64,000 nt of DNA. It comes from Zetaproteobacteria bacterium (GTDB lineage: Bacteria > Pseudomonadota > Zetaproteobacteria > Mariprofundales > Mariprofundaceae). Location of the stretch: assembly GCA_021545585.1 (NCBI GenBank), contig JAJRTF010000109.1, positions 2,524 through 66,523 of the forward strand, read 5' to 3'. Within the stretch, counting starts at the first letter, position 1. Every line of letters begins with the position of its first letter. Both the position numbers and the translations under genes were made by a program. Shown piece after piece: positions 7,467 to 55,032 of the stretch. Below the pieces are notes generated by a model that was not told the DNA's origin, ran no database searches, and worked only from the letters and a program-made list of their open reading frames with translations.

Positions 7467-8855
7467 GTGACCCGGCAGGTTTCTTTTTTCGAAGAGTCTG
7501 CCTTATCGGAATCAACCGGGTCTGAGGTGGCTGTGCCGCTTGCCTATCGTATTCGCCCCAAAACGCTTGCTGATGTAGCCGGTCAGGCTGATCTGACATA
7601 TCCTGATTCATGGTTTGCACGCATGGTGGATGAGCAGCGTGCCATTTCATGCATTTTCTGGGGTCCTCCCGGAGTAGGCAAGACGACACTGGCGGCCATG
7701 ATGGCTGATGCGGCGGGACTGCCGCTGGCCCAGCTTTCCGCCGTATCAGCAGGCAAGGCCGAGGTGCAGGCCATCGTGAAGCGTGCAAAAGATGAAGGCA
7801 AAACATGGCTGTTATTCCTCGATGAAATCCATCGTTTTAACAAAGCACAGCAGGATGTACTGCTTCCCTATATTGAAGATGGCACCTTGGTGCTGGTGGG
7901 GGCAACCACCGAAAACCCGTCATTTTCGCTGAACAATGCCTTGCTGTCGCGCTGCCGGATCATTGTACTCAAAGCTTTGCAGCCCGATGATATCAAACAC
8001 ATCCTGCAACGTGCCTGTGAGCATCTGAGGCAGGCTCATCAGGCATTTGAAGTGGATGGGGATGCACTCGAATTTCTGGCCTGTGCAGCTGACGGCGATG
8101 CACGTTATGCATTGAATGCACTTGAGTCGCTGTTTGAGGCCGATGCCGAGCGCATCTGGAATCCCGAGGATGTGCAGGCACAGAGCCTGCGCCGCGCGGC
8201 CCGCTATGATCGGGATGGCGATGCACATTACGATCTGATTTCTGCACTGCACAAATGCGTACGCGATTCCGATGCCGATGCGGCTGTGTACTGGTTGGCG
8301 CGTATGCTGGAGGCGGGCGAAGAGCCGCTATATATTATGCGCCGCCTGATTCGTATGGCGACCGAGGATATCGGCCTGGCTGATCCCCGGGCACTGTCTG
8401 TGGCTATGGATGCACACCGCATGTACCAGGTGCTTGGCTCTCCCGAGGGGGAGCAGGGGCTGTTTGAAACGGCAATCTATCTGGCGCTAGCGCCGAAAAG
8501 CAATGCAGCCTATCGTGCCGAGAAAGCAGCCCGTAGCCTTGCCAGGAAGACGCAGGACACGGAGGTGCCGATGCATCTGCGAAATGCGCCGACCAGGCTG
8601 ATGCAGGAGCTTGGACATGGAAAAGGTTATCAGTATGCCCATGATGCGGATGATGCCGTTGTAGCCCAGCAGCATTTCCCCGATGGCGTACAAGGCGATA
8701 GTCTTTATCGACCGAGCGAGCGCGGCTTTGAAAAGACGCTGCAGAAGCGGCTGGCATGGCTTGCGTCCAGACGCTCGGGAATGCCGGATGAATCAGGGAG
8801 TACGGAGATATCCGGGAAGGCTGAAATATCCGGAGTGGGGAGGCATAAGGCATGA
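7467..8855 (+). CDS. rarA: replication-associated recombination protein A (AAA+ ATPase RarA/MgsA)
   Basis: Walker A (GPPGVGKTTLA), Walker B (LFLDEIHRFNK), and the MgsA C-terminal domain (HYDLISALHKCVRDSDADAAVYWLARML). Confidence 0.92.
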   Translation: MTRQVSFFEESALSESTGSEVAVPLAYRIRPKTLADVAGQADLTYPDSWFARMVDEQRAISCIFWGPPGVGKTTLAAMMADAAGLPLAQLSAVSAGKAEVQAIVKRAKDEGKTWLLFLDEIHRFNKAQQDVLLPYIEDGTLVLVGATTENPSFSLNNALLSRCRIIVLKALQPDDIKHILQRACEHLRQAHQAFEVDGDALEFLACAADGDARYALNALESLFEADAERIWNPEDVQAQSLRRAARYDRDGDAHYDLISALHKCVRDSDADAAVYWLARMLEAGEEPLYIMRRLIRMATEDIGLADPRALSVAMDAHRMYQVLGSPEGEQGLFETAIYLALAPKSNAAYRAEKAARSLARKTQDTEVPMHLRNAPTRLMQELGHGKGYQYAHDADDAVVAQQHFPDGVQGDSLYRPSERGFEKTLQKRLAWLASRRSGMPDESGSTEISGKAEISGVGRHKA

Positions 8856-39648: not shown

Positions 39649-39740
39649 TACCCGTCTTCTGCTAATACTGCAGTTCGTATGAACTGTGGTGTGCGCGCCT
39701 TTGCGGTTGCGTACGAATCATACGCAGGAGGCACGTGCGC

Positions 39741-45500: not shown

Positions 45501-45711
45501 AATGACGGCGACTGCCGTCATTGCGGGCCTGGTACCGATTATGCTAGGCGGCGGTACGGGCTCGGATGTCATGCAGCGCATCGCTGCACCAATGATCGGC
45601 GGCATGGTAACGACCACGTTGCTGTGTCTGATCGTGTTGCCGGTGATCTACGGCATGATTTTACAGCTTCAGGAAAAGCGAATAACAAACAGGAGAAAAG
45701 ATGATGAATAA
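42523..45711 (+). CDS. cusA: heavy-metal RND transporter, CusA/SilA type
   Basis: 1062 aa with 12 TM helices. GAMVDGAIVLIENAHKH and SEFMPPLDEGDILYMPT are characteristic of monovalent-cation HME-RND pumps. Confidence 0.9.
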   Translation: MIAKIIDASLRNKLLVLIFTGILVAAGAFAVKNISLDAIPDLSDVQVIVFTDYAGQAPQVVEDQVTYPLTTAMLAVPHSKVVRGYSFFGFSVVYIIFEDGTDMYWARSRVLEYLNYVAGRLPAGVTPSLGPDATGVGWVYEYALVDKSGKHDLSELRSIQDWYMRYALQTVSGVSEVASMGGFIKQYQVEVDPNAMAEYGIPLAKVKHAIKRSNNDVGGRLIEMGETEFMVRGKGYLKGIADLESIPVGVDLHGTPILLRDVAHIHLGPELRRGLVELNGEGEVAGGVIIMRFGENALTTIEAVREKLEELKKGLPDGVEIIPTYDRGDLIERAVENLKDKLFEEFIVISLVCMLFLMHARSALVAIVTLPLGVLIAFMLMQWQGLAANIMSLGGIAITLGAMVDGAIVLIENAHKHLEHALHDKAKKLGQQMDAIQLSAKERWAAVGQASREVGPALFFSLLIITVSYMAIFTLEAQEGRLFKPLAFTATYAMLGSAVLAVTLVPLLMGWFIRGKVMPEEKNPVNRALQWAHGPALANALKHKWVTLLIAVGLLFSMAIPMSKIGSEFMPPLDEGDILYMPTTFPGLSITKAKELVQQTDRILKTFPEVRSVFGKVGRADSATDAAPLSMMETIIRLKPKEEWPQPDKSTQELMREMDAAIKFPGLANAWTYPIKTRIDMLSTGIKTPIGIKVSGPDLNVLQEVGKSIEQAVKTLSETTSAFSDRAAGGYYLDIDIQRDQAARYGLTVGDIEDVIQSAIGGMNVTPTVEGLERYPVNLRYPRDYRSDPDALKRVLIPTPTGAQIPLIAVAEISISRGPPSIKSENARLNAWIYVDISSSDIGGYVAQAKQVIRDQVKIPAGYTLEWSGQFEYMERAAAKMRIVIPATLLLIFLLLYFNFGSLTAPVVVMMSVPFSLIGGFWLVWWLGFNLSVAVAVGFIALAGVAAEIGVLVLTFIDQEITLRRKAIGDGFSEKDLSEAVQSGVAKRVRPIAMTATAVIAGLVPIMLGGGTGSDVMQRIAAPMIGGMVTTTLLCLIVLPVIYGMILQLQEKRITNRRKDDE

Positions 45712-46195
45712 AATGGTTTTGCTATTAGCCGGGGCTCTGGCCTTTGGTACAAGCAAGATGGCTGTGGCGCATGGAGATATGCACGAGATGAATGCTCATG
45801 AGCACATGGACGACTCGATGCATGGGCAACATCAGGCAGGTGCGATGGCCGACATGAAGGGTTTTATGGTGAAGAAGGATATTGATGGATATACGGTCAG
45901 TTTCCATATCATGAAAGCCCCGGAAGGGCAGCCCCACGGAGGCACGCATCATTTGATGGTCAAGATTGAAAAAGACGGAAAACCTGTCGATATCATGGCG
46001 GCAAATTCAAAGTCGGCCCACCCCAACGGCCAGTCCGAATCAAAGATGATGATGAAAATGGGTAACTGGTATATGGCCAGCTATGATTTTGTCCATGCAG
46101 GACAGCATCAGGTGATGGTGTTGTTCAAGACGCAGGACGGAGCCAAGCATTTTGGTGGCATTAACTATCCCGAACAGGGCAAGGAGCAGGAATGA
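45701..46195 (+). CDS. periplasmic His/Met-rich protein of unknown family (paralog A)
   Basis: It has a signal peptide (MAVAHG). The mature N-terminus DMHEMNAHEHMDDSMHGQHQAGAMADM is His/Met-rich. The core is DGYTVSFHIM..PEG...HHLMVKIEKDGKPV...MGNWYMASY. It is coupled to cusA (11-nt overlap) and to the next gene (ATGA). Confidence 0.6.
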   Translation: MMNKMVLLLAGALAFGTSKMAVAHGDMHEMNAHEHMDDSMHGQHQAGAMADMKGFMVKKDIDGYTVSFHIMKAPEGQPHGGTHHLMVKIEKDGKPVDIMAANSKSAHPNGQSESKMMMKMGNWYMASYDFVHAGQHQVMVLFKTQDGAKHFGGINYPEQGKEQE

Positions 46196-46949: not shown

Positions 46950-47009
46950 GTCGATATCACCTCTTGATTGACAGGAATACCGGCCGGGGCCGGGCCGAAA
47001 GGAGATGAT

Positions 47010-47477
47010 ATGAGAAAATATATTGTATGGCTGGGTGTGTTGTTCATGCTCGGGGCATGCGCAACGTTACCGGAAGGCCAGAAAAGTGAACGGCAACATG
47101 GTGCGGGCGACATTCAGGGTATGGATCATAAATCATCCTTTTTCGTAGCACGGAAGGGTGTAGCGGATGGTTATGTTTTTATCTTCCATGTTATGCCCAG
47201 TCCCGAAGGGGAGAGTTATAGCCGTACCTTTTATCATCTCATGGTCAGCGTTGAAAAAAATGGCCAGCCCATGGTGCATTTGAAACTGTATTCGGCCGTG
47301 GAGCATCCGGATGGAAGTATGGAGAAGAAAGCACTCATGATGCAGATGGGTAACTGGTATATGGCACGCTATAACCTTAGCCATGAACAGGGGCGACATT
47401 GGATTACGGTGTCATTTGATCTGGATGGAAATCACTATCCGTCCGGCATTTATTACCCGGAATGGATCGTTCGGTGA
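47010..47477 (+). CDS. periplasmic lipoprotein of unknown family (paralog B of 45701..46195)
   Basis: It has the lipobox LGAC. The core DGYVFIFHVM.SPEG...YHLMVSVEKNGQPM...MGNWYMARY...GIYYPE aligns by eye with paralog A. The ATG at 47010 follows AAAGGAG. Confidence 0.6.
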   Translation: MRKYIVWLGVLFMLGACATLPEGQKSERQHGAGDIQGMDHKSSFFVARKGVADGYVFIFHVMPSPEGESYSRTFYHLMVSVEKNGQPMVHLKLYSAVEHPDGSMEKKALMMQMGNWYMARYNLSHEQGRHWITVSFDLDGNHYPSGIYYPEWIVR

Positions 47478-48905: not shown

Positions 48906-48944
48906 GATGGTTGAGCACATGAAATGAAGATAAGGGAGTCCGAT

Positions 48945-49271
48945 ATGAAAAAAACAGGTGCGATGGGTCTGTTGGCAGGAATCATGCTGGTGTCGATACC
49001 GGTTGTTTATGCAGAGCATAGCATGTCCGATACTCAACATCGTAAAGCGATGAGCGGTCTGCATCATCCCGAGCATGCCGATGATATGAAACATTCGGAT
49101 GGCAAGGCAACAATGTCCGATGCACAGCATCGCAAGACAATGGGTGGCATGCATCATCCGGATCGTGAGGATGAAGGCATGAAAGACAGCCATGAAGAAA
49201 AGAAGGAATCGACCATGTCTGACAGCCAGCATCGTAAGAGCATGGGTGGATTGCATCACCCCAAGGACTAG
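48945..49271 (+). CDS. secreted His-rich triple-repeat protein
   Basis: A signal peptide (VVYA/EH) is followed by three copies of MSDxQHRKxMxGxHHP, separated by acidic/His linkers. The ATG at 48945 follows AAGGGAG. Confidence 0.6.
   Translation: MKKTGAMGLLAGIMLVSIPVVYAEHSMSDTQHRKAMSGLHHPEHADDMKHSDGKATMSDAQHRKTMGGMHHPDREDEGMKDSHEEKKESTMSDSQHRKSMGGLHHPKD
49023..49262 (+). repeat. three in-frame degenerate repeats encoding MSD(T/A/S)QHRK(A/T/S)M(S/G)G(L/M)HHP
   Basis: The repeat units start at codons 27, 57 and 91 of the ORF; read directly from the sequence. Confidence 0.85.
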
Positions 49272-49370: not shown

Positions 49371-51938
49371 ATGAGTATCGATCCGGTTTGTGGAATGACA
49401 GTCAAGGCTGAGAGCGAACATGCACGATCCTTCCGCGGTGTGGATTATCATTTTTGCAGTGAACGCTGCTTAGAAAAATTCGGAGAAAATCCGGAAGATT
49501 ATCTGGGTGAGGATTGCACCCATGATCCGGTCTGCGGCATGAAGGTGTCTCGCGCCTCGGCCAATCATGTACGCCATGCCGATCACGACTATTTTTTCTG
49601 TTCGCAACATTGTGTGGAGAAATTCACCACCGATCCGGCATCTTTCGAGGGCAAGGATCAGATATGCGAGCATGGGCATCATGTGAAAAAGGTATCCGTG
49701 CCGGACAATCCCGATGCGACCTATTTCTGCCCGATGTGCCCCGGACAGGAGCAGCAGGGGCCGGGCACATGCAAGGTCTGTGGCATGGCACTGGAGCCCA
49801 TGGCGACACCGACACTGGCGCAGAAGACCGAATATGTCTGTCCGATGCATCCTGAGGTGGTCAGTGATGAGCCGGGCAGTTGTCCGAAATGCGGCATGGC
49901 GCTGGAAGCGCGCACTGTCGATGCAGACGAAGAAAACCCTGAACTGGAGGATATGAGTCGCCGTCTCAAGGTGGGTACTGTACTCGCAGCCCCCGTATTT
50001 GTGCTGGCCATGGTGGCTGATCTGGCACCATCGTGGCTGCCATCCGGCTTGAGCATGGGCATGGTACAGTGGATTGAATTCGTGTTGGCGACACCGGTGA
50101 TTCTGTGGGGTGGCTGGCCGTTTTTCGAACGTTTCTGGTTATCCGTTACAACATGGAATCTGAATATGTTTACCCTGGTCGGTCTCGGTGTCGGTGTGGC
50201 GTGGGTGTACAGCGTCGTGGCCCTGCTTGTTCCCGGTGTTTTCCCGCCTGTGATGCAGATGGACGGTGGGCTGGTGGATGTTTATTTCGAGGCTGGAGCC
50301 GTGATTACTGCACTCGTTCTGCTCGGTCAGGTACTGGAGTTGCGCGCCCGCTCCCGCACCAATGAAGCGATCAAACTGTTGCTTGGCATGGCTCCGAAAA
50401 CAGCACGGCGCGTGGCGGCGGATGGTTCGGAGGCCGATGTGCCGCTGGAGGATGTGCTTGCCGGTGATGTGCTGCGTATTCGACCGGGCGAGAAAGTGCC
50501 GGTGGACGGTGTAGTGACGGAAGGTGAGAGCAATGTCGATGAATCCATGGTCACCGGTGAACCTGTGCCGGTTGAAAAAATGGCCGGGGAGAAACTGATC
50601 GGTGCAACGGTGAACGGTAATGGTTCGTTGTTGATGCGCGCCGAGAAGGTGGGGGCCGACACCTTGCTGGCGCAGATTGTGAATATGGTGGCAGAGGCTC
50701 AGCGCTCGCGTGCACCGATTCAGAAAATGGCCGATACCGTGGCCGGTTATTTTGTACCGGTTGTGGTTGGTATTGCTGTCGCGGCGTTTGCGGTATGGAT
50801 GTTGATCGGGCCGGAACCGCGTCTGGCGCATGCCATTGTCAATGCGGTGGCGGTATTGATTATCGCCTGCCCCTGCGCTTTGGGGCTGGCTACACCGATA
50901 TCCATTATGGTGGGAACAGGTCGCGGTGCGACGGCCGGTGTGCTGATCAAAAATGCTGAGGCGCTGGAGGTGATGGAGAAGGTCAATACCGTTGTGGTGG
51001 ATAAAACCGGCACCCTGACCAAAGGCAAGCCGACGTTGACCACAGTGCTGGTAATGCATGGCATGGAAGAAAACCAGGTACTGCGTATGGCGGCCAGTCT
51101 GGAGCGCGCTAGTGAGCATCCGCTGGCTGAAGCGATTGTTGCCGGTGCCGCAGCACGGGATATCGAGCCTGAACCGGTGGAAGGGTTTGCCGCGATTACC
51201 GGTAAAGGTGTCAGTGCCCGTTTCGGCGGTAAATCGGTATTGCTGGGCAACCTGAAACTGTTGCAGGACAATGGCATTGATGCCGAAGATGTGACTCCGG
51301 TGGTTGAGGAACATCAGTTGGATGGAGAAACGGTGATGTATCTGGCTGCCGACGGGAAACTTGCCGGTCTGATCGGCGTATCCGACCCGATCAAGGCATC
51401 CACGCCCGATGCAATCCGGGAACTGCGTGATGAAGGCATCGACGTGGTGATGCTGACCGGCGATAACCATAACACGGCGGCTGCTGTGGCCGAGAAGCTG
51501 GGTATCGACCGTTTTGAGGCGGATGTATTGCCGGATCAGAAGGCGGCCGTGGTGAAAGCCTTGCAGGCGGAAGGGAAGACCGTGGCCATGGCCGGCGATG
51601 GTATCAATGATGCGCCGGCGCTGGCGCAGGCTCATGTCGGCATTGCCATGGGGACGGGTACGGATGTGGCGATGGAATCGGCCGGGGTGACGCTGATCAA
51701 GGGTGAACTGACCGGTATTGTGCGGGCTCGCAGACTTTCGCGGGCGACGATGAAAAATATCCGCCAGAATCTTTTCTTTGCCTTTATCTACAACTCGGCC
51801 GGTGTGCCGGTTGCGGCCGGGGTACTGTATCCGGTGTTTGGTTTATTGCTTTCACCGATTATTGCCGCTGCCGCGATGAGTTTTTCATCGGTTTCGGTGA
51901 TTACCAATGCGCTCAGACTGCGCCATGCGAAGCTTTGA
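49371..51938 (+). CDS. copA: Cu(I)/Ag(I)-translocating P1B-type ATPase
   Basis: CPC ([12 protein letters not shown]), [18 protein letters not shown]. The N-terminus has 2 YHS/TRASH units and 2 CxxC...CxxC units instead of HMA domains. Confidence 0.92.
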
Positions 51939-51970: not shown

Positions 51971-52735
51971 ATGATTGAAGTAACGCTGGCAGGTGCACTG
52001 ATTGCAGGACTGCTTTCTTTTCTATCACCATGCGTGTTGCCACTGGTGCCTGCCTACCTGTCGTATATTTCCGGCGTGTCGGTCAATGAGTTGCGACAGC
52101 AGGATGAACGGACGGCAGTGGTGCGGCGACATGCACTGGTTCAGGCGCTGTGGTTTGTGGCGGGGTTTAGCCTGATCTTTATTGCATTGGGGGCATCAGC
52201 CACACTGCTCGGGCAATGGATGATGGGGCATATGGAATTGCTTGGTAAAATTGCCGGAGCGATTATTGTGGTGTTCGGGTTGCACTATACCGGATTGATT
52301 CGCATCCCCCTGCTGATGATGGAAGCGCGATTCGATGCGGGCGGTGTCAATGCCAAACATGGTATGGGAGCCTTGATTCTTGGATCGGCTTTTGCGTTCG
52401 GCTGGACACCGTGCATCGGCCCGATTCTCGGCGCCATTCTGGCTGTTGCCGGCGTTCAGAGTGAAATGATGCACGGCATTATGTTGCTGCTTGTGTATTC
52501 CATGGGGCTGGCGATTCCCTTCCTGCTGGCAGCACTGGCAACAGATTCGTTCCTGCGCTGGTCACAGGATTTCAAGCGGCATTTGGCGGTGGTGGAAAAG
52601 GTGTCCGGTGTGTTGCTGATTCTGGTCGGCATACTTATTTTTCTGGGCAGTTTTAACATCGTTTCCGGATGGCTGATTGACTGGTTTCCGGCTCTCGCTG
52701 ATATCGAAGGCGCTTTTGCAGGGCTGGCGCAATAA
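51971..52735 (+). CDS. ccdA: CcdA/DsbD-family thiol-disulfide transmembrane electron transporter
   Basis: About 6 TM helices, with the conserved FLSPCVLPLVPAYLSY motif and a second Cys in WTPCIGPILG. Confidence 0.8.
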   Translation: MIEVTLAGALIAGLLSFLSPCVLPLVPAYLSYISGVSVNELRQQDERTAVVRRHALVQALWFVAGFSLIFIALGASATLLGQWMMGHMELLGKIAGAIIVVFGLHYTGLIRIPLLMMEARFDAGGVNAKHGMGALILGSAFAFGWTPCIGPILGAILAVAGVQSEMMHGIMLLLVYSMGLAIPFLLAALATDSFLRWSQDFKRHLAVVEKVSGVLLILVGILIFLGSFNIVSGWLIDWFPALADIEGAFAGLAQ

Positions 52736-52864
52736 TCTGCCCGGTAGGAGGAGCAAGTTCAGTGACAGAAGCTGTCTTTCACAAGAGAGCCGGACAATCC
52801 ACTTATATGGATGGCTATCCACGCTCACTGCCTGCCCTGTTATGGGTGCTCTGGAGGACGTTGG

Positions 52865-53764
52865 ATGATGTTTGCATGGGTCATTGTGTTTGCTGCCGGA
52901 CTGTTCGCATGTTCGGGTACTGCCAATGCCGGGCCGATTACCTTTAACAGTGCCCTGCCTGTTTCTGAAGGCGTGGGTATTTTTCGCAGTCAGATCAGGC
53001 TGATGCGGAAATCAGGAGATTCTGCGCCTATGAACCGGGATCTGGCTGTCACCGCCGTGCCGCTGGTGCTGGCCTACGGTGCCAGTCCCAGACTGGCCCT
53101 GTTCGGCGTGCTTCCGTATGTCGAAAAGCGTCTGCATATAACTGTGAACGGAGCGCGGGTCCGGCGTGAGGCCCGAGGCATCGGTGACGCTTCATTCTTT
53201 GGTCGCTATACCATGATCCAGATAGACCGTCCCGGCGACACACTCCGTATCGCACCGTTTGCCGGTCTGAAAATTCCGACAGGGGCACATGATAAACGCG
53301 ATGCCTTTGGAGTGTTACCGCGCACACTGCAGCCCGGCTCCGGATCATGGGATCCGTTTGCAGGGCTGACCATCACCCGCCAAACCCTGGATTGGGAGTT
53401 TGATGCAGCGGTCAGGTACCAACTTAACACCGGAGCATCGGGATTTGCTTTTGGCGATCAGGCAAGAGCAGATGTCTCATTTCAATATCGGATCTTTCCG
53501 CGCACGCTGAAAAGTGGTGGCGTGCCTGCCTTTACCTATGCTGTTCTGGAAGCCAGTCTGATCTGGAATGGCAAGAATAAAGCGGCAGGAGCGACAGATA
53601 TGAATAGCGGCGGAATGATATGGCATCTGGCGCCTGGGCTGCAATATGTGACGAGTCGCTATGTGCTGGAAACTGCTGTCCAGATACCGGTCATACAACG
53701 GCTGAACGGTTCAGCCCTGAAAACAGACTGGGTGTGGACGGCGGGGTTTCGTCGGAACTTTTAA
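52865..53764 (+). CDS. outer-membrane beta-barrel protein (Phenol_MetA_deg/transporter-like)
   Basis: It has a signal peptide (GTANA/GP), alternating amphipathic strands, a GIGD motif and a C-terminal FRRNF ending in Phe. I prefer the ATG at 52865. Confidence 0.55.
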   Translation: MMFAWVIVFAAGLFACSGTANAGPITFNSALPVSEGVGIFRSQIRLMRKSGDSAPMNRDLAVTAVPLVLAYGASPRLALFGVLPYVEKRLHITVNGARVRREARGIGDASFFGRYTMIQIDRPGDTLRIAPFAGLKIPTGAHDKRDAFGVLPRTLQPGSGSWDPFAGLTITRQTLDWEFDAAVRYQLNTGASGFAFGDQARADVSFQYRIFPRTLKSGGVPAFTYAVLEASLIWNGKNKAAGATDMNSGGMIWHLAPGLQYVTSRYVLETAVQIPVIQRLNGSALKTDWVWTAGFRRNF

Positions 53765-53776
53765 GGAGCGTTTAAC

Positions 53777-54082
53777 ATGCATATATTACCGGGGTTGTTC
53801 ATGCTTGCATGGTTGTCAGTCGTTCCTGTGGGCCTGGCATGTGCGGAAGCTGCTACAGAACACACAGCCACTATTGCCGTGGATGGCCTGTCCTGCCCGT
53901 TTTGTGCATACGGCCTTGAAAAGAACCTGAAAAAGCTGAAGGGAATAGAAACAGTCGATATCAATATGAAGACTGGCAAGGTAACGGTAATGATAAGGCC
54001 AGATGCGGATGTTGATGATCGGGCACTGCGTCAGGCGGTGAGAAAAGCGGGTTTCACTGCACGGGATATTACGCGCCGGTGA
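53777..54082 (+). CDS. periplasmic HMA-domain metal-binding protein (MerP/CopZ-like with signal peptide)
   Basis: It has a signal peptide (GLACA/EA) and an HMA fold with a CPFC metal site (VDGLSCPFCAYGLEKNL). Confidence 0.75.
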   Translation: MHILPGLFMLAWLSVVPVGLACAEAATEHTATIAVDGLSCPFCAYGLEKNLKKLKGIETVDINMKTGKVTVMIRPDADVDDRALRQAVRKAGFTARDITRR

Positions 54083-55032
54083 AGGTTTTGACGCGCTCTT
54101 TTTCAACGCTGTTCGGACTCTTTGTGATCACTCTGCTCGCTGCCTGTAGCGGTAGCCCTGCCAATGTACTGGTATGGGGTGGTTTGGGTGATGCACCGGG
54201 TCAATTCAATGAACCGTTTGATGTGGCGGTGGACCAGAAAGGTTTTGTCTATATCACCGATGTACGCAACAGGCGCGTGCAGAAGTTCAGTGCAGGTGGC
54301 GATTTTCTGATGGCATTCGGCCAGGAAGTATTTGAAAAGCCCGGCGGGATTGGCATCGGACCTGACGATACGGTCTGGGTAACAGACTATGATTTGGACC
54401 GAATCTTTCACTTTGATAACAAAGGGTTCCTTATCGCGGCATGGGGAGAAGCCGGTGAAGGGCTGGATGCATTCGATTCACCGGTGGATGTGGCGGTGAA
54501 TGCTGCAGGGATGGTGTACGTGGTGGATCAATACCATCATCGCATTCAACAGTTCACTCCAGATGGTCGTTTGATTCGTGTATGGGGCAAACGTGGAAAG
54601 GTCAATGTTGTGCGATCCGCTCTCAACTTTCTGATTTCGGATGATCGGGAAAGTGAATTCTATTATCCATCGCGCATAGCTGTCGGTACAGATGATCACA
54701 TTTATGTGTCTGATGCTTATAACAATCGTGTGCAGGTATTCGATGCCAAAGGTCATTTTCTGCACCAAATCGGTGGAGTGGGGTTGTGGGGAGGGCGTTT
54801 TCGTGTCGCCTCCGGTCTTGCTGTGAGTCGGGATGGGAGCCTGTTTGTGGCGGATTTTTATAATAATCGTATCCAGCATTTTGATCATCAAGGCCGTTTT
54901 CTTGCTGCATGGGGAGCAAAAGGCAACAGGCCCGGATTCTTTTCCGGCCCTACCGGTGTTGCCGTGAGTCGCAATGGGCAGATTTATGTGGCCGACTGGG
55001 GCAATCATCGTATGCAAAGGTTTGCGCAGTGA
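54079..55032 (+). CDS. NHL-repeat six-bladed beta-propeller lipoprotein
   Basis: It has the lipobox LAAC. Six NHL-type repeats are visible (e.g. FNEPFDVAVD..G.VYITD..N.RVQKF, YVVDQYHHRIQQF, YVSDAYNNRVQVF, FVADFYNNRIQHF, YVADWGNHRMQRF). The GTG start overlaps the upstream stop. Confidence 0.8.
   Translation: MKVLTRSFSTLFGLFVITLLAACSGSPANVLVWGGLGDAPGQFNEPFDVAVDQKGFVYITDVRNRRVQKFSAGGDFLMAFGQEVFEKPGGIGIGPDDTVWVTDYDLDRIFHFDNKGFLIAAWGEAGEGLDAFDSPVDVAVNAAGMVYVVDQYHHRIQQFTPDGRLIRVWGKRGKVNVVRSALNFLISDDRESEFYYPSRIAVGTDDHIYVSDAYNNRVQVFDAKGHFLHQIGGVGLWGGRFRVASGLAVSRDGSLFVADFYNNRIQHFDHQGRFLAAWGAKGNRPGFFSGPTGVAVSRNGQIYVADWGNHRMQRFAQ

Follow-up and report, generated by a model that had tools for sequence, protein, structure and literature searches.

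Genes at the locus

The stretch of DNA analysed here, referred to as the window, comprises 64,000 nucleotides of contig JAJRTF010000109.1 from a member of the Zetaproteobacteria (Mariprofundaceae; assembly GCA_021545585.1). Directly 3' of copA (49371-51938, + strand), the window carries four further + strand open reading frames (ORFs): ccdA (51971-52735), a gene for a beta-barrel outer-membrane protein (OMP; 52868-53764), a gene for an HMA protein that is exported to the periplasm and carries a CPFC site (53777-54082), and a gene for a six-blade NHL beta-propeller lipoprotein (54079-55032). Between ccdA and the OMP gene lie an 85-nt spacer of no recognisable origin (52736-52820) and about 47 nt that read, on the + strand, as the 3' end of a merR gene (52821-52867). 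A sequence-only reading had described the four ORFs as they are found here and had joined them into a single envelope-spanning module. The present analysis instead finds a junction of two independent units, copA-ccdA and the triad OMP-HMA-NHL (52868-55032). The genes of the triad are adjacent and co-directional, in the order seen at zetaproteobacterial loci, and are the structural genes of a cassette that is widespread and horizontally mobile and nearly always has its own MerR. In the preferred reading, to which a probability of about 0.55 is assigned, the cassette serves as an accessory module for the handling of mercury-type metal (Hg(II), possibly Pb or Cd) in the cell envelope, and the window holds an orphaned copy of it.

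The OMP ORF spans 52811-53764, and its start was set at the ATG at 52868 by homologues and by a database copy (P0001, 298 residues). The protein has a signal peptide (ending in SGTANA, ahead of the mature sequence GPITF) and terminates in RRNF. The window protein itself has no Pfam or NCBIfam match, even at E<=10; its orthologues (about 50-59% identical) score 33-58 bits on PF13557 (Phenol_MetA_deg; cutoff 22), and matches to PF13557 are also precomputed for members of the family in database records. With an AlphaFold2 model of the protein (predicted local distance difference test score [pLDDT] 73, predicted template modelling score 0.72), Foldseek retrieved the COG4313 channel 4RL8 (E 6e-10, template modelling score 0.74) and FapF (5O67; E 3e-10). 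The family call made from the sequence alone, including the terminal Phe, thus holds by transitive homology, through the orthologues that match PF13557, and by fold. The most conserved stretch of the protein is the mature N-terminus, GPITFNSALPV or APQTFNTALPVAEG, which is modelled at a pLDDT below 50; Cys, His and Met are nowhere conserved in the family alignment. The barrel lumen of the solved COG4313 channel is blocked by its first ~14 residues, and the family is implicated in the passage of hydrophobic small molecules (PMC4493636). Many cassettes (L012:5898-6752; L064, L065, L094, L099 and others) also encode a second, divergent COG4313 paralogue (about 28% identity) ahead of the HMA and OMP genes.

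The HMA protein carries a Sec-type signal peptide and matches PF00403 (E 3.7e-14) around the motif GLSCPFCAYG, and across 82 HMA orthologues from cassettes the longer motif GLxCPFCAYGxEKxL shows conservation of 90% or more. The protein has the architecture of MerP but is not MerP. It scores 39.3 bits on the MerP model TIGR02052, below the equivalog cutoff of 92.55, and a true MerP coexists with the cassette HMA protein at loci L028 (Ghiorsea) and L148.

The NHL protein matches PF01436 (E 5.3e-47, in five stretches) and PF17170, as well as the solved NHL domains of TRIM71 and Thin (E 1e-53 to 1e-57), and six blades of the form D-x-x-N/Y-x-R-(I/V)-Q-x-F can be read in its sequence. It is translationally coupled to the HMA gene: its GTG start (54079) overlaps the HMA stop (54080-54082) by 4 nt, and the overlap is equal at L009, L028 and L030. 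The lipobox, LLAAC in the window copy, is present in 22/22 zetaproteobacterial orthologues, whereas at least 30 of 43 sequences from outside the Zetaproteobacteria have an N-terminal signal-anchor without a lipobox. The propeller is therefore predicted to be membrane-tethered across the family. The signal-peptide HMA protein and the six-repeat lipoprotein overlapping it are as the sequence-only reading had them. The conserved positions of the NHL protein are those of a generic blade signature, and no Cys, His or Met is among them. This leaves the HMA protein, with its CPFC, as the only triad member that has a conserved thiol site. No curated NCBIfam model naming the OMP, HMA or NHL protein was matched, and a search for HMA-NHL or OMP-NHL gene fusions found none.

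Conservation of the cassette across bacteria

A scan with the NHL protein returned related loci that were essentially all zetaproteobacterial, with the order OMP-HMA-NHL and with neither ccdA nor copA beside them. At these loci a MerR-family gene precedes the OMP gene on the same strand wherever the contig reaches that far, and the end of this gene overlaps the start codon of the OMP gene. An OMP-family profile reached much further and matched 220 species-level genomes, of which 80 loci were examined. The hosts of these loci include Alpha-, Beta-, Gamma- and Deltaproteobacteria, Nitrospirae, Bacteroidetes/Rhodothermales, Acidobacteria, Verrucomicrobia, SAR324 and NC10. Conservation of the cassette is tight both in Zetaproteobacteria and in no fewer than eight further major lineages. 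Outside the Zetaproteobacteria the usual order is merR-HMA-OMP-NHL, with about 50% identity to the window OMP and about 37% to the window NHL protein.

Neighbours were counted at loci with enough flank, separately for non-Zetaproteobacteria and Zetaproteobacteria. An HMA gene adjoins the OMP gene at 48/51 and 19/19 loci, respectively (67 of the 70 evaluable), and an NHL gene does so at 39/41 and 12/14 (51 of 55). A MerR gene lies within 2.5 kb of the OMP gene at 23/33 non-zetaproteobacterial and 10/10 zetaproteobacterial loci. Clustering of neighbouring ORFs returned the same four core families, the OMP at 74 loci, the NHL protein at 52, the HMA protein at 49 and MerR at 47, followed by MerA (15 loci), MerT (12), a small thioredoxin-like protein (8) and P1B ATPases (8). 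In a metagenome scan with the OMP, every close relative whose contig reaches upstream has merR there. A search with a Halomonas-type OMP gave more than 2,900 database clusters at E<=1e-30; the named entries among the best matches listed are called only 'transporter', 'hypothetical' or 'Putative MetA-pathway of phenol degradation'.

OMP sequences from distant phyla are 66-90% identical, which indicates horizontal spread. At L149 (10074-16930) and L150 (9091-13008) the cassette and a mer operon lie beside a ParDE toxin-antitoxin, a tyrosine integrase and a Y1 transposase, that is, in a mobile island, and such an island fits the high identity of the OMP between distant phyla. A search of PLSDB for plasmid carriage gave one weak match only, at 32% identity. 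At L006 (1-3200) the triad is tandemly duplicated.

The regulator, the operator and the link to mercury resistance

In the regulator of the cassette, one Cys coincides with C82 of MerR and two more form a C-x8-C pair, which together give the three-Cys pattern of Hg/Pb-type regulators (positions C82, C117 and C126). Six regulators from four lineages were tested, and each scores highest on the NCBIfam model of the mercury-responsive MerR (TIGR02051, 128-142 bits), ahead of CueR, ZntR and CadR-PbrR. The regions upstream of the cassettes contain MerR-type promoters with a 20-nt spacer and a merO-like GTAC-N4-GTAC dyad, for example TTGACACCGTACCATGGTACGCCTGCTATCTT in L085 and TTGACCCTATACCATGGTTATGGGTTTAGAGT in L030. 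The first gene of zetaproteobacterial cassette operons (L002:855-1127, L011:6020-6352, L065:986-1258) encodes a small cytoplasmic thioredoxin-like protein (CPxC) and is placed between the merO-like promoter and merR, and L009 and L030 retain an internally deleted remnant of this gene upstream of merR (MIIKQKIE...ASLRADGLLCSVST). The cassette is regarded as a MerR-controlled metal-resistance operon with component types that are new to such operons; the literature searched yielded no description of it.

Cassettes often lie next to or within mer operons. In Ghiorsea bivora (L028) an uninterrupted + strand run reads merR-OMP-HMA-NHL-merR-merT-merP-merF-merA, and at L148 merR-T-P-C-A is followed by merR-HMA-OMP-NHL. 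The cassette lies beside merR/T/P/A at L149 and L150, and at L128 and L108 merA is followed directly by HMA-OMP-NHL without a second regulator. Where the flanks are at least 4 kb on both sides, mer genes are found near the cassette at 10/28 non-zetaproteobacterial and 5/8 zetaproteobacterial loci (15/36 together). Metal-resistance islands are the usual setting of the complete cassette. A mercury-type role is considered the most likely because it is next to or inside merT/P/F/A operons that the complete cassette is most specifically found. Among the metals that the sequence-only reading had put forward (Cu, Ag or Hg-like), it is the Hg-like option that fits best. An association with organomercury resistance was considered as a general feature and rejected, as a MerB-like gene is present at only 1-2 cassette loci.

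Other metal-resistance genes accompany the cassette as well. The zetaproteobacterial cassette is placed between cusCBA and czc-like RND and CDF efflux genes. A P1B ATPase gene is directly upstream in the same operon at L100 and nearby at L094, L102, L107, L109 and L120. The P1B ATPases encoded upstream of the cassette at L100 (3097-5553), L107 (140-2638) and L094 (3-2183), from hosts that include Litchfieldella and a SAR324 metagenome-assembled genome, have GYPCA(L/V/M)G in the fourth transmembrane segment where CPC is expected, and FNG and MAASVT where CopA has YN and MSxSS. These ATPases may represent an uncharacterised P1B subtype tied to the cassette. The regulator at L100 (2351-3049) is a MerR-HMA fusion.

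Loss of merR in the window

The window departs from this pattern at its left boundary. The 64-kb sequence contains no full MerR and no MerA, MerT, MerP or MerF (only a generic HMA match at 46.7 kb), and no merO-like operator was found in it with up to 9 mismatches allowed in 32 positions. What is present immediately upstream of the OMP gene (52821-52867) aligns in register with the last codons of merR, with 28/36 identities to L030 and 28/35 to L002; the alignment scores, 32 and 30, are higher than the maxima of 28 and 26 from 200 shuffles. Its translation ends in TLTACPVMGALEDVG before the stop codon, against ACPIMDSLEGDG in relatives, and the overlap of this stop with the OMP start is kept. 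To the left of the remnant, the 85-nt spacer resembles none of the loci that were fetched. Promoter and terminator signals between ccdA and the OMP gene do not rise above chance, and the ccdA/merR-remnant junction has no exact match in the genome or metagenome collections. To the right of the triad, orf164 is followed by the outer-membrane factor, membrane fusion protein and RND components of an efflux pump and then by a CDF gene, and this flank is syntenic with the cassette flank in relatives.

The window copy has lost merR and its operator, leaving the triad orphaned. The remnant, the missing MerR and operator and the matching right flank point to a rearrangement that would have joined the end of a cus/cop block (copA-ccdA) to a cassette, deleting merR and the promoter and leaving about 47 nt behind. 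Since the merR remnant lies between them, the adjacency of ccdA and the OMP gene is regarded as secondary. The triad ORFs remain intact, with no frameshift or stop over about 2.2 kb and with all family-invariant residues kept, and the GGAGG ribosome-binding site upstream of the OMP start is retained. The triad would now be expressible only by read-through from copA-ccdA, or not at all.

The position of ccdA

CcdA is a DsbD_TM-family inner-membrane thiol-reductant conduit. It matches PF02683 (E 2.6e-16, 60 bits, cutoff 27.1) and the solved CcdA structure 5VKV (E 2.5e-37, residues 4-236), and it retains the Cys residues of both PC motifs (SPCVLP and TPCIGP), in agreement with the sequence-only reading. 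No ccm, res or thioredoxin-like gene adjoins ccdA in the window. A scan with CcdA gave 26 zetaproteobacterial ccdA loci (71-87% identity). The gene upstream of ccdA is copA at 13 of these and, immediately upstream, cutA at 5 (L046, L047, L049, L051 and L056, at about position 8000 or, in L051, about 2080), an arrangement that mirrors the cutA-dsbD (dipZ) copper-tolerance locus of E. coli. The triad is downstream of ccdA at none of the 26. In Mariprofundus ferrooxydans PV-1 (L034:5409-7946) copA and ccdA are separated by an insertion of two genes, of which one is transposase-like, and in L035, L037 and L040 a gene for a 394-residue membrane protein is found there; the copA-ccdA adjacency is therefore a synteny that tolerates insertions.

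Seen from the cassette, the association is equally absent. CcdA occurs at 1 of 83 cassette loci, and in the lone exception it is 25% identical and encoded on the opposite strand. The four families are thus not co-conserved. In at least nine assemblies that have both, ccdA and the cassette are on different contigs, as in M. micogutta (BDFD01000003 and BDFD01000013). In a neighbour-joining tree of CcdA, the copies next to copA and those next to cutA do not fall into separate groups. A cop-specific CcdA paralogue was considered and is not supported, since the tree gives no clean split by context, and CcdA therefore looks like one core orthologue with a varying neighbourhood, not a metal-island paralogue. 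The gene belongs with copA or with the core genome and not with the cassette. CcdA is most likely the ordinary thiol-reductant conduit of the organism, and it is plausible that this housekeeping gene came to lie here by chance.

Other genes of the window

Positions 1-39000 of the window hold ordinary chromosomal housekeeping genes (RNase J, FtsK, MgsA, a succinate dehydrogenase/fumarate reductase flavoprotein, homoserine dehydrogenase, RecJ and RF-2), and the metal island starts at a cusC-like gene at 39735. Within the cus/cop island, two paralogous, secreted, His/Met-rich YtkA-like proteins are encoded on the + strand at 45701-46195 and 46968-47477, flanking a DUF411 gene (CopG-like, CxCC) and a gene for a 72-residue HMA protein. 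This set recurs in L035, L038 and L048 with variable copy number. The copA product is a P1B-type Cu(I) ATPase with a CPC motif (CPCALG) and N-terminal YHS and HMBD domains, identified by Pfam and NCBIfam matches. Just 5' of copA, a + strand gene (48924-49271) encodes a 115-residue secreted protein with three MSDxQHRKxMxGxHHP repeats. The protein has no family assignment, is kept at the equivalent position in L048 and L054 (47-53% identity) and is probably a periplasmic His/Met-type metal binder.

Proposed function and alternative explanations

The following route is proposed for the intact cassette. The COG4313 channel would let small metal species that are neutral or hydrophobic through the outer membrane, and the CPFC-HMA protein, like MerP, would bind the metal on the periplasmic side. 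The NHL propeller, which would be anchored in the inner membrane in most lineages and present as a lipoprotein in Zetaproteobacteria, may act as a docking platform for the loaded HMA protein, from which the metal would be handed to an inner-membrane transporter, either MerT/F/C or, at some loci, a P1B pump. The inward direction, toward MerT/F/C and MerA, is preferred, since among the specific neighbours of the cassette importer-type mer genes come up most often. A more specific proposal, in which the cassette supplies bacterial mercury detoxification with a stage in the outer membrane and periplasm that has so far been missing (an outer-membrane gate for neutral Hg, a CPFC chaperone, an NHL dock and MerT/F/C), is tentative, with the odds against it. 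If it were true, it would provide the first outer-membrane mer component and the first assigned role of an NHL propeller in bacterial metal homeostasis.

Several points weigh against a mercury-type role. About 60% of the cassette loci with at least 4 kb of flank have no nearby mer gene, some carry P1B ATPase, RND or CDF efflux genes instead, and the window itself has no mer gene. The cassette regulators fall under the TIGR02051 equivalog cutoff of 150.85, although in Ghiorsea the bona fide mer operon beside the cassette has a regulator that is also under it (128 bits), and PbrR-type Pb sensors have identical Cys spacing. The OMP and NHL families lack conserved Cys, His or Met, and a metal site is evident in the HMA protein only. 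It is also counter-intuitive that a channel should raise the entry of Hg, although MerT and MerP do likewise. As for the orphaning of the window copy, the merR remnant is short, and the junction, found in no other assembly, might conceivably be an assembly chimera.

The alternatives differ in how they treat CcdA and in the direction in which metal would move. The sequence-only reading had taken CcdA, OMP, HMA and NHL as one reductant-driven route of metal handling or export, or as a system for periplasmic thiol repair, with electrons from CcdA keeping the CPFC-HMA protein or metal-damaged proteins reduced. Such a route would account for four adjacent, co-directional genes with no terminator signal between ccdA and the OMP gene; CPFC is a glutaredoxin-like CxxC motif, and fusions of CxxC and NHL domains exist (SOQ1 and NHLRC2, among the solved-structure matches). 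It is nevertheless highly improbable. CcdA is missing from 82 of 83 cassette loci and unlinked in the assemblies noted above that have both, its gene is syntenic with copA or cutA instead and is separated from the OMP gene by the merR remnant, and the cassette elsewhere has no dedicated CcdA. There is no thioredoxin-fold partner and, with no conserved Cys in the NHL and OMP families, CPFC is the sole possible recipient of reductant. What stands of the envelope module is the barrel, the HMA protein and the propeller, which are co-conserved and linked to metal resistance; the membership of CcdA does not stand. A second alternative, the main rival, keeps the triad together and reverses the flow: the cassette would be an exit route, comparable to Pco/Cop, in which the HMA protein takes up periplasmic metal, pumped there by a P1B ATPase or accumulated, and the COG4313 barrel lets it out of the cell, with the NHL propeller as a scaffold. 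The P1B ATPase genes upstream of the cassette in the L100 operon and near it at five other loci, the copA gene upstream in the window and the cusCBA, czc-like RND and CDF genes around the zetaproteobacterial cassette would all suit this. Against it, the barrel has neither energy coupling nor conserved soft-metal ligands, and the importer-type mer neighbours (MerA at 15 loci, MerT at 12) are commoner than P1B pumps (8), making an exit route unlikely.

Two further explanations concern the window copy in particular. After its orphaning, the triad might have been co-opted into a copper regulon through read-through from copA-ccdA and might buffer periplasmic Cu(I) or Ag(I). HMA CxxC sites generally bind Cu(I), and the three intact ORFs with all family-invariant residues, the retained GGAGG and the lack of a terminator signal after ccdA speak for it. 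The arrangement is absent from all other loci and assemblies searched, however, and the loss of merR may simply be recent; co-option is quite unlikely. Conversely, the triad could be a silent, decaying remnant following the loss of its promoter and regulator, or the junction could be an assembly chimera, since merR, the operator and the promoter are all missing and the junction is unique. The uninterrupted ORFs over about 2.2 kb, the preserved translational coupling and a right flank syntenic with the cassette flank of relatives argue against both, and this explanation is judged very unlikely. An accessory, mercury-type cassette that has been orphaned in the window remains the preferred reading.

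In the mer paradigm the crossing of the outer membrane by Hg(II) is treated as passive diffusion (PMC8261052). A conserved and mobile four-gene cassette that lies beside merTPFA in many phyla offers concrete gene candidates for this step, in cultivable hosts; the intact cassette is present in Ghiorsea bivora TAG-1, Mariprofundus micogutta ET2, Litchfieldella/Halomonas, Roseovarius sp. A-2 and Thalassospira profundimaris. It also gives a context to families that have been labelled only 'transporter', 'HMA domain protein' or 'NHL repeat protein'. For the window, a module that had been joined too far is corrected: ccdA is assigned to copA or to the core genome, and the triad to a copy of the cassette that lacks its regulator.

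Comparison with known systems

The OMP resembles the COG4313/Phenol_MetA_deg channels (Pput2725, 4RL8; SphA) and FapF in its predicted barrel, in the matches of its orthologues to PF13557 and in its C-terminal Phe, and its conserved N-terminal segment may correspond to the N-terminal plug of the COG4313 family. The known members of these families serve the uptake of hydrophobic organic compounds or the secretion of amyloid, not metals, and have no HMA or NHL partners; the OMP described here is in a metal context and has both.

The pairing of a CxxC protein with a six-blade NHL propeller in an oxidising compartment is also seen in SOQ1 and NHLRC2, whose NHL domains give weak sequence matches. 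In these proteins the CxxC is on a thioredoxin fold that is fused to the NHL domain, whereas in the cassette it is on a separate HMA fold, and any relationship between them would be hypothetical. For ccdA, the closest parallels are the cutA-dsbD (dipZ) locus of E. coli and the Scs-type DsbD-like systems, in which a membrane thiol-reductant conduit is genetically linked to copper tolerance. The window protein differs from DsbD in being a minimal CcdA without the periplasmic domains, and from Scs-type systems in that its gene has no adjoining Scs-like thioredoxin partner.

PcoB/CopB with PcoC and PcoE, and CusF with CusCBA, resemble the cassette in combining a soluble periplasmic metal carrier with an outer-membrane protein in a metal island, near a P1B ATPase and RND pumps. 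The resemblance does not extend to homology, as the cassette proteins match no PcoB/CopB, CusF or multicopper-oxidase family, and the cassette regulator looks like one for divalent Hg rather than like CueR or CusRS.

The closest comparison is with mer operons of the Tn501/Tn21 type, with their uptake genes (MerP, MerT, MerF, MerC) and their MerR/merO control. A 2021 survey of mer genes names only MerP/T/C/E/F/G/R/D and draws the passage across the outer membrane as diffusion (PMC8261052). The window copy differs from these operons in having no MerR, no merO and none of the mer genes, and the cassette HMA protein is a paralogue separate from MerP, with GLSCPFC in place of GMTCxxC. Elsewhere the cassette shares with mer operons a three-Cys MerR-family regulator, a merO-like operator with a 19-20 nt spacer and a secreted CxxC HMA protein, and it physically adjoins merTPFA operons or is embedded in them. 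To our knowledge, neither an outer-membrane barrel nor an NHL propeller has been described from a mer operon; the cassette has both.

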